DNA of 50,961 bases from an uncultured Subdoligranulum sp. (GTDB taxonomy: Bacteria > Bacillota > Clostridia > Christensenellales > CAG-314), in the NCBI GenBank assembly GCA_964612455.1, contig CAZTCB010000005.1, positions 1-50,961 on the forward strand, given 5' to 3'. How positions within the stretch are numbered: position 1 is the stretch's first letter; every line of letters starts with the position of its first letter. The notes under the pieces are model-generated. The model worked only from the letters and a program-made list of their open reading frames with translations, did not search any database and was not told the DNA's origin. Position numbers and translations under genes: made by a program. Below are positions 22,596 to 23,480 of the stretch, in pieces.

Positions 22596-23480
22596 ATGCC
22601 GACGGAAAACATTGAAAAAGCGAAAACGTTGTTGAAAGAAACGCAGGCGCTTGACGACAAATATCTCGAGTTGTCAAGGCTGTCGGCTTATCCCGAAATC
22701 ATGGCGGACGCAACGTATATGCGTTTTTTAGCGAAGGAGCAAACGGCGCTAAAACCGCTACACGGGTGGCGACAAACTTTGGCGACGTTGGTAGAGGACG
22801 CCGAATTTTGCCTCTCGGAATCGAGTAAAGGCGGCAAGGAGCGCAGGTTTTTTGAAGAGGAGTTGGCTCAAATCGAAAAAAAAGCGGCACCCGTGTGCGC
22901 CGAAATAAAAAAATTTCTTGCCGACGGCGGCGAAATCGACCTGTACGGGTGCACGATAGAAATGTCGGGGGACGCGCGCGGGATAGTTGCGCTCAAGGAG
23001 GAGTTTTTTAAAACGGCGGAGGGCGTTCGTTGTCCGTTGATAGTCGTCAAAAATAGCATGACGGCGGGGGACGGGGGCTACGGATTGTTTAAGGAGCAGG
23101 GCGGACGGCACAAGTTTGTCTATTCCGTCGACGGCAGGCAGGCGTGCGGCGAGGTGCTGGTCGTCGTTTTACCCGATATCGTCGCCAAAAAGGCAGAGTG
23201 GAGCGAAAAAGACTTGCGCATCGATATTTATCATTCGTCGGGCGCGGGCGGTCAAAACGTCAACAAGGTGGCGAGTGCGGTGAGGATAACGCACTTGCCT
23301 ACGGGGATAGTCGTGAGTTGTCAGGAGGAGCGTTCGCAATTGTTTAATAAAGAACGCGCCTTTGCCGCGCTTGAAAAGAAACTTGCCGAAAAATACGGCG
23401 AAGAAGTCGCCGAAAAAAAAGACGAAATCCGCAAGCGGCAAAAAAACTCGGCGGGTTTCGTAGCAACGCACAAAATTTAA
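22596..23480 (+). CDS. Class-I release-factor paralog (PCRF-like N-terminus plus GGQ domain) lacking the codon-recognition elements
   Basis: GGQ at aa 218-220 in [35 protein letters not shown]. No PxT or SPF tripeptide and no GRIHTS-type segment. The protein ends about 75 aa after GGQ. Confidence 0.8.
   Translation: [294 protein letters not shown]

Follow-up and report, generated by a model that had tools for sequence, protein, structure and literature searches.

The window analysed here is a 50,961-nucleotide (nt) stretch, contig CAZTCB010000005.1 of an uncultured Subdoligranulum sp., and the element in question is a five-gene operon on its forward strand (Table 1). The first gene encodes a paralog of release factor 1 (RF1), called the RF-like protein below, in which the GGQ motif is kept and the stop-codon reading head is gone. 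It is followed, in this order, by genes for a superfamily 1 (SF1) helicase, a coiled-coil protein, a single-pass membrane protein and a small transmembrane (TM) protein. The RF-like open reading frame (ORF) starts with ATG and ends with TAA, and both its length of 294 amino acids (aa) and the place of its GGQ codons (G218-G219-Q220; nt 23247-23255) are as given in a previous reading of the DNA that used the letters only (the sequence-only reading). The perfect promoter of that reading was found again: the TTGACA-17-TATAAT site was the top-scoring match in the 9 kb scanned (21000-30000), is separated from the start codon by 24 nt, and is predicted to act as the promoter of the RF-like gene.

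Table 1. Coordinates of the operon, its promoter and the domains of the RF-like protein in the window (aa, amino acids; AF2, AlphaFold2 model)
Feature	Position (nt)	Strand	Basis
Predicted sigma-70-type promoter, TTGACA-17 nt-TATAAT, with TG upstream of the -10 element	22544-22572	+	12/12 match to consensus
RF1-like paralog, 294 aa, GGQ kept, stop-codon reading head gone; operon gene 1	22596-23480	+	Pfam, NCBIfam, alignments, model
Domain 1 (aa 1-117), helical, with family signature YPEIxADxxYxR	22596-22946	+	PCRF match; AF2 helices at aa 4-116
Reduced domain 2 (aa 118-200), small beta-sheet and one helix	22947-23195	+	Alignments, model
Domain 3 (aa 201-247), catalytic GGQ domain	23196-23336	+	Pfam RF-1, E = 3e-30
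Long helix alpha7 (aa 248-283), then one beta-strand at the C-terminus (aa 288-293, FVATHKI)	23337-23477	+	Alignment, AF2 model
SF1 UvrD-like helicase, 802 aa	23503-25911	+	Pfam, alignment, AF2, Foldseek
Coiled-coil protein, 236 aa, basic C-terminal tail	25915-26625	+	Alignment
Single-pass membrane protein, 630 aa	26636-28528	+	Next after the coiled-coil gene wherever the locus is long enough
Small two-TM protein, 73 aa	28525-28746	+	Start overlaps the previous stop (ATGA)

The catalytic domain of the RF-like protein was intact, as had been claimed. Pfam RF-1 (PF00472) covered aa 202-284 with 105 bits (cutoff 35), and the GGQ domain was 84-93% identical to those of canonical RF1s and 95% identical inside the window subfamily. 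Judged from sequence, the GGQ domain is near-ancestral and strongly constrained. The recognisable N-terminal domain reported earlier was likewise seen, as helices in the AlphaFold2 (AF2) model; PCRF matched aa 20-127 with 22.8 bits, slightly under the 24-bit Pfam cutoff, and AF2 and Foldseek both favoured an RF-type domain 1 with a reduced domain 2.

The stop-codon reading elements were lost. In alignments with canonical 356-aa RF1s of Clostridia and Chloroflexi, domain 2 carried three deletions (6, 12 and 4 aa), and the 4-aa deletion removed the VQRVPxT segment, which holds the tripeptide anticodon; SPF, the RF2 motif, was not in the aligned region, and GRQACG stood where RF1 has GRIHTS. The sequence-only reading was right that this stretch is shortened and its motifs gone, but it had called the stretch unrelated, and it is a homologous, degenerate strand-loop-strand in which the structural residues H172, V189, V191 and P193 are kept. 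At the C-terminus, the IRTYNF segment of RF1 aligned with the end of the window protein, FVATHKI, where the chain stops, so that 74 residues followed GGQ vs. 123 in canonical RF1 and the whole protein was about 62 aa shorter. The C-terminal decoding subdomain, said to be missing, is mostly but not wholly absent, one terminal beta-strand of domain 4 (aa 288-293) remaining in the AF2 model. The helicase start codon lies 22 nt after the RF-like stop codon, which leaves no room for a hidden, frameshifted domain 4. With GGQ retained and the decoding elements lost, stop-codon-independent release would be expected.

The AF2 model of the RF-like protein (predicted local distance difference test score, pLDDT, 86.9; predicted template modelling score, pTM, 0.70) showed domain 1 as helices (aa 4-116) and domain 2 as a small sheet with one helix, and further comprised the GGQ domain, alpha7 and the terminal strand. 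Its closest Foldseek matches were ribosome-bound, open RF1 and RF2 (7m5d_A, E = 2e-16, template modelling score about 0.5), with closed crystal forms at about 0.3 and PrfH on a damaged ribosome also matched (9mor_A, E = 4e-8). A sequence search of the PDB with the window protein returned only RF1, RF2, mitochondrial RF1, PrfH and C12orf65, the top match being Streptococcus mutans RF1 (E = 3e-28), confined mostly to aa 154-285. Neither the tripeptide anticodon motif nor domain 4 was recovered by any alignment or model, an outcome on which the sequence-only reading had staked its claim.

The window protein belongs to the class-I release factor superfamily, with RF-1 above its gathering score and GGQ present, and scored below the NCBIfam cutoff of every named member: prfA (TIGR00019 and NF001859; 134 and 131 bits vs. 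423 and 400), prfB (TIGR00020; 123 vs. 370), PrfH (TIGR03072; 77 vs. 167) and ArfB (NF006718; 44 vs. 100). As a control, a canonical prfA product from a related locus (L079) reached 508 bits on the prfA model. For the window protein the prfA models outscored the prfB models. Of the RF1 features, PxT, GRxHTS and a domain 4 with RTYNFPQ and DHR were all lacking. Domain 1 was present and the neighbour was an SF1 helicase with no RtcB, contrary to PrfH; domains 1 and 2 were present and the C-terminus was a beta-strand and not a basic helix, contrary to ArfB. That the protein is neither ArfB nor PrfH had been said before and agrees with these scores; scores, alignments and model together also upheld the central claim of a class-I paralog with GGQ and without stop-codon reading elements. 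The bacterial versions of the GGQ domain listed by Burroughs and Aravind (PMC6514570) are RF1, RF2, ArfB and PrfH, and the window protein is, on the evidence of its sequence, an RF1-derived paralog outside these four described classes. Relatives bore only the names 'PCRF domain-containing protein' or 'peptide chain release factor-like protein' in public records, and full-text literature searches found no prior description of the RF-like family or the operon. What is new is an architectural class of GGQ release-factor paralog and its set of partners; the operon as a whole may be a new system.

The RF-like gene is, by its substitution pattern, functional and under purifying selection. The ratio of nonsynonymous to synonymous substitution rates (dN/dS, Nei-Gojobori) was 0.148 between loci L001 and L002 (dS 0.32) and 0.135 between L001 and L008; pairs that included the window gave 0.17-0.18, at saturated dS. 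Length was constant at 293-294 aa in the independently assembled relatives of the subfamily (L001-L004, L008), and the 90%-identity cluster of the RF-like protein had 185 members.

The case for paralogy is made by locus L079 and by stop-codon usage. On one contig, L079 (CAMWIL010000025.1) carried a canonical prfA and a module RF-like gene, 4.8 kb apart. The prfA, which follows a DUF1385-PrmC fusion gene, had PET, GRVHTS, RTYNFPQ and DHR and exceeded the cutoff of 423 bits; the RF-like gene downstream of it gave 123 bits on the same model. The sequence-only reading had granted that it would fall if this were the only RF1 of its genome, and in this relative a prfA stands beside the RF-like gene. 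A crude greedy ORF call gave 41 ORFs in the window, ending in TAA (26), TGA (11) or TAG (4), and operon gene 3 itself ends in TAG (26623-26625); all three stops being used, both RF1 and RF2 functions are needed. The best canonical RF1 matches shared an rpmE/prmC/prfA context, and canonical 356-aa RF1s were abundant in metagenome-assembled genomes (MAGs) of related Clostridia. By record name, the contigs of the two best canonical RF1 matches (CBDTFM01, ENA metagenome) corresponded to no module locus.

At the Clostridia loci L079 (171-2006), L088 (4141-5982) and L089 (4075-5907), canonical prfA was preceded by a gene whose 610-aa product joins DUF1385 to a PrmC-type methyltransferase domain.

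The sequence-only reading had missed both the operon with its SF1 helicase and the wider PxT-less family. A word-index search returned only two close relatives of the RF-like protein (66-67% identity, 293 aa). An HMMER scan of 1.84 billion representatives, with aa 1-200 as the query, returned the same close cluster plus distant proteins of 313-345 aa, which carried the domain-1 signature PEIxADxxYWR, had no PxT and no GRIHTS, and kept a degenerate domain 4. The N-terminal part of the window protein was nearest to the module RF-like proteins (76 bits with L006 vs. 50 bits or less with canonical RF1). The operon genes were also common to L001-L003 and to the distant locus L005 within unrelated flanks, and encode an approximately 800-aa helicase, an approximately 238-aa protein, a 600-730-aa membrane protein and a small TM protein; at L006 the RF-like/helicase pair and the start of the third gene were visible before the contig end. 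The flanks were ksgA in the window subfamily, dnaE/HU/metH at L005, and his genes with gdh at L006.

The helicase served as an independent probe against 185,579 GTDB species genomes and had relatives in at least 223 of them. The best 80 of these 223 were nearly all MAGs labelled Christensenella, Christensenellaceae, Christensenellales, Catabacter, Clostridia or Clostridiales, and came from human, mouse, ruminant, rabbit, chicken and termite guts and from digesters. Neighbours were counted by local BLASTP over 86 helicase-bearing loci, 83 of them informative after removal of three with the helicase at a contig edge. A same-strand RF-like ORF lay directly upstream of the helicase in 76 of the 83, with a modal gap of -4 nt (ATGA overlap), and the coiled-coil and membrane genes followed the helicase in essentially every sufficiently long locus (median gaps -4 and +4 nt). 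The operon is tightly packed, and its genes are presumably co-transcribed and probably translationally coupled. The frequency of the adjacency, the unrelated flanks and the -4 nt gap suggest that the RF-like gene is functionally linked to the helicase.

Among about 75 module RF-like proteins, GAGGQ(N/H)(V/I)NK was invariant apart from two with GKGGQ, PxT and GRxHTS did not occur (0/~75 for each), and domain 4 was degenerate or absent. The number of residues after GGQ was 99-121 in most of them, 95 in L013, 93 in L058 and L059, and 74-76 in the window subfamily and L077. With its full gene order the window fits the module-linked, PxT-less RF1-like family so defined, and the alignments indicate that its protein is the most reduced branch of that large family.

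Some loci of the family departed from the usual arrangement. An RF-like gene was nearby in another orientation at two loci: at L013 (16270-17352, minus strand) it lacked PxT and was convergent, just downstream of the membrane gene, and at L062 (8844-9833, minus strand) it was divergent, upstream, and had GKGGQ. One helicase subclade, of five loci (L009, L010, L012, L014, L018), was without a nearby RF-like gene; its helicase was about 46% identical to that of the window, and most of its members had membrane proteins longer than is usual (881-1006 aa). Three loci (L015, L024, L081) were labelled 'uncultured Bacteroidaceae bacterium', with helicases 41-50% identical to that of the window, as in Clostridia; they are probably mis-binned or mislabelled and not real occurrences in Bacteroidota, and L071 ('Ruminococcus bicirculans ... 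cleanbin') is probably another such contig.

The GGQ domain of the window subfamily was nearer to canonical RF1s (84-93%) than to the other module RF-like proteins (mean 66%), which implies unusually slow evolution of the catalytic domain in the very branch whose losses from domains 2 and 4 are the greatest. Gene conversion with prfA was considered (81% identity to canonical RF1 vs. 66% to module RF-like proteins) and rejected, the domain being 93% identical even to a Dehalococcoidales RF1.

The helicase matched Pfam UvrD-helicase (PF00580) with 35.9 bits (cutoff 23), as expected of SF1, and its motifs GSGKT, DEVQD, YRNT and VGVTRA were intact and invariant in the alignment. Identity between distant loci was 40-47%, above that of the RF-like proteins. 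The AF2 model (pLDDT 86.4, pTM 0.86) had a beta-rich N-domain (aa 1-145), an SF1 core that contains a helical insertion (about 243-400) but lacks a large 2B domain, and a domain of helical repeats at the C-terminus (641-802). The best Foldseek matches were UvrD, PcrA and Rep (template modelling scores 0.36-0.48), with HelD, Ighmbp2 and Upf1 weaker; the matches did not clearly separate DNA from RNA helicases, nor UvrD from HelD or Upf1. Names of these helicases in public records were generic.

The coiled-coil protein was of constant length (236-243 aa) and ended in the tail D(K/R)WAxxR(K)VK(I)KK in 71 of 73 homologues; searches of Pfam, PADLOC, PHROGs, NCBIfam and the PDB gave generic coiled-coil similarities alone. 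The membrane protein begins with a conserved cytoplasmic domain of about 155 aa and has one TM helix, at about 150-200 in every homologue listed, and an extracellular part of variable length with GG(I/V)A-type repeats, the total ranging from 598 to 1006 aa; it had no match in Pfam, PADLOC, NCBIfam or the PDB. The small two-TM protein, 53-56% identical in the close subfamily, was the weakest member of the module: only 41 of 71 loci showed a small TM ORF after their membrane gene. It had no informative match in PADLOC, PHROGs, NCBIfam or Pfam.

The window is a chromosomal origin region, with dnaA, dnaN, yidC, mnmE, mnmG, rsmG, metG, gltX and ksgA upstream of the operon. Scans of the window for tRNAs and Rfam families found none, and so no tmRNA, riboswitch or leader with the operon; no mobile-element genes were seen near the operon, and the helicase family was essentially absent from 2.9 million viral contigs (IMG/VR). 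The module looks chromosomal and clade-wide, and not like a mobile defence island.

Several other features of the window were recorded. The genes dnaA (5542-6906, minus strand) and dnaN (7101-8387, plus strand) are divergent, vs. the usual co-oriented dnaA-dnaN, and are followed by an rnpA/yidC/mnmE/mnmG/rsmG string after dnaN. The true start of dnaN is probably downstream of the listed TTG at 7101, because Pfam matches begin at residue 62, and the short spacer from 6907 to that start may hold oriC. Between gltX and ksgA stands a lone 177-aa ORF (20563-21096, minus strand) with a prepilin-type N_methyl motif (E = 5e-8). An identical 20-nt hairpin, GACAGAATACACATTCTGTC, occurs at 21075-21094 and 21326-21345, the two copies flanking about 230 bp that separate this pilin-like gene from ksgA; a peptide start 'MTECVFCLQ' is found at both copies, which may be a small duplicated or repeat element. 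After the operon come two small putative lipoproteins (28801-29868; signal peptides with a cysteine, LVACGG and ALCGCS) and a divergent TetR regulator (29987-30568), a layout also present in L001 (6288-7224) and thus synteny at the subfamily level only. Three large BspA-type leucine-rich-repeat surface proteins (33909-36776, 38214-40619 and 48678-50654, minus strand; Pfam LRR_5, E down to 1e-192) lie inside 17 kb.

Codon-independent rescue of stalled translation, in which a GGQ peptidyl-tRNA hydrolase would work with a helicase, was considered with moderate confidence to be the function of the module. The RF-like protein would use domains 2 and 3 to bind the ribosomal A site, and its GGQ loop would enter the peptidyl-transferase centre and hydrolyse peptidyl-tRNA without codon reading. 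Its targets would be stalled, collided or non-stop ribosomes, possibly ones engaged in translation at the membrane or in coupling with RNA polymerase. With ATP, the helicase might pull on or strip off mRNA or the transcription complex, or might split ribosomes, after which the RF-like protein, recruited by its partners and not by a codon, would free the nascent chain; the basic tail of the coiled-coil protein and the membrane anchor may give targeting. The broader proposition, that this is a fifth bacterial class of GGQ release factor, the catalytic part of a clade-wide machine of Christensenellales-like gut Clostridia whose SF1 helicase, coiled-coil and membrane proteins recruit it, blind to codons, to stalled translation complexes in a new pathway of ribosome quality control, is advanced tentatively and has less than even probability.

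Several observations weigh against rescue as the function. The only tie between the helicase and the ribosome is the neighbouring gene, and the modelled fold is a generic SF1A one for which a DNA substrate seems at least as likely as RNA. The variable extracellular domain of the membrane protein has no obvious place in a ribosome-rescue scheme. At the five loci without an RF-like gene, the helicase, coiled-coil and membrane proteins are apparently able to work without a dedicated RF-like partner. The input alignment of the AF2 model of the RF-like protein was dominated by canonical RF1s, and its RF1-like shape is partly imposed. Neither prfA nor prfB was observed for the genome of the window itself, of which 51 kb is visible.

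An anti-phage or conflict system was judged unlikely. The membrane protein would then be a sensor of envelope events, the helicase would sense or process foreign nucleic acid, and the codon-blind GGQ protein would stop translation through premature release of peptides, as abortive infection; in a variant resembling PrfH-RtcB, ribosomes damaged by ribotoxins would be rescued. The helicase did match Gabija GajB and the DRT-associated helicase in PADLOC, weakly and with partial coverage (best E = 9e-15), but no PADLOC model matched the RF-like, membrane or small proteins, and no GajA or RtcB adjoined. The length spread of the membrane protein is as for a surface protein under diversifying pressure, and flanking genes vary from locus to locus; however, occurrence in one order-level clade, the uniform helicase identity and the constant architecture have a vertical look and not a sporadic one. 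PrfH-type paralogs have been argued to arise in conflicts (Burroughs and Aravind, PMC6514570), whereas this module is placed in an oriC-proximal housekeeping region with mobile-element genes absent nearby, and its helicase is next to missing from viral contigs.

It was held improbable that the RF-like protein acts alone, as an ArfB-like non-stop rescue factor, with the downstream genes an unrelated unit on a shared transcript. A GGQ domain and a lost decoding head suffice in principle for rescue with a vacant A site, ArfB and ArfA are largely missing from Firmicutes, and five helicase loci do without the RF-like gene. Against this, the adjacency persists in 76 of the 83 loci among RF-like proteins only about 30-36% identical, within unrelated flanks and with a modal 4-nt overlap; the RF-like protein has no ArfB-type basic C-terminal tail for the empty mRNA channel, and the one conserved basic tail of the operon belongs to the coiled-coil protein.

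A decayed or truncated prfA duplicate, a pseudogene, or a mis-assembled or frameshifted RF1, as the shortening by some 62 aa and the vanished motifs might suggest, was very improbable and is effectively refuted by dN/dS near 0.15, the conserved length and the cluster of 185, to which the 95% identity of the GGQ domain, the consensus promoter and the 22-nt gap may be added. That the protein is the only, divergent housekeeping RF1, reading UAA and UAG unconventionally, fits the lack of another prfA in the visible 51 kb and was given the least credence, being effectively excluded by the loss of all RF1 elements that contact stop codons and of domain 4 (134 bits vs. the equivalog cutoff of 423), by coexistence with prfA in L079 and the many canonical RF1s of related Clostridia, and by the use of TAG as a stop, even inside the operon.

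The family combines a retained domain 1, a stripped decoding head, the loss of domain 4 in the window branch and very consistent partners; at least 223 species-level genomes, from a clade prominent in the gut, carry it. If the rescue activity is real, it would be a new way of licensing peptide release without a codon, would tie an SF1 helicase to bacterial translation quality control, and would supply structural and synthetic biology with a minimal release factor of natural origin. Should the module instead serve in defence or stress, it would add a new case of translation shut-off by a release-factor paralog. The fused methyltransferase raises the question of whether DUF1385-fused PrmC also methylates the GGQ of the RF-like paralog.

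Among known systems, Gabija GajB and HelD have the SF1A core in common with the window helicase. The GajB matches were partial and weak, none of the five operon proteins matched GajA in PADLOC, and HelD (template modelling scores 0.26-0.32) ranked below UvrD, PcrA and Rep; the window helicase family is set apart by its beta-rich N-domain and its C-terminal helical repeats. HrpA in Escherichia coli and MutS2/RqcH in Bacillus subtilis offer an analogy in which an ATP motor acts on stalled ribosomes and the peptidyl-tRNA is then handled (PMC11419001; 10.64898/2026.04.23.720132; PMC11633108), and HrpA, which splits collided ribosomes, is a bacterial precedent for helicase-driven rescue (PMC11419001). 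HrpA is a DExH-box (SF2) enzyme, however, and the window helicase SF1A UvrD-like, and these systems have no dedicated GGQ paralog and no membrane components.

In ArfA-RF2 and BrfA-RF2, it is a small partner protein, and not a stop codon, that licenses the release factor (PMC6881298). The basic tail of the coiled-coil protein recalls the tails that probe the mRNA channel and may be taken as a lead only. ArfA and BrfA are tiny proteins that recruit normal RF2, whereas here a dedicated paralog takes the place of RF2, and the candidate adaptor, the coiled-coil protein of 236 aa, has no detectable homology to either. PrfH (RFH) is likewise a GGQ paralog with an altered decoding domain in an operon with a nucleic-acid enzyme, and with RtcB it is thought to rescue abnormal ribosomes (PMC6514570; PMC9304027). 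Its architecture is the reverse of that of the window protein, since PrfH is without domain 1 and has the domain 2/4 recognition module; its partner is the RtcB ligase and its distribution sporadic, with horizontal spread, vs. an SF1 helicase and a clade-wide distribution for the window family.

ArfB (YaeJ) and ICT1 carry GGQ without stop-codon reading, and by analogy codon-independent release would be expected of the window protein. ArfB is a standalone GGQ domain of about 140 aa, extended by a linker and by a basic helix at the C-terminus with which the empty mRNA channel is probed (PMC6514570), whereas the window protein retains domains 1 and 2 and bears no basic tail, and its gene shares an operon with that of a helicase. 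ArfB was found in 5 of 2,633 Firmicutes genomes (PMC11633108), and the window protein would fill this niche, empty in Firmicutes. With RF1, of which it is an evident homologue and from which it derives, the window protein shares domain 1, the core of domain 2, the GGQ domain and alpha7; its gene stands in a helicase operon and not in the rpmE/prmC/prfA context of RF1.

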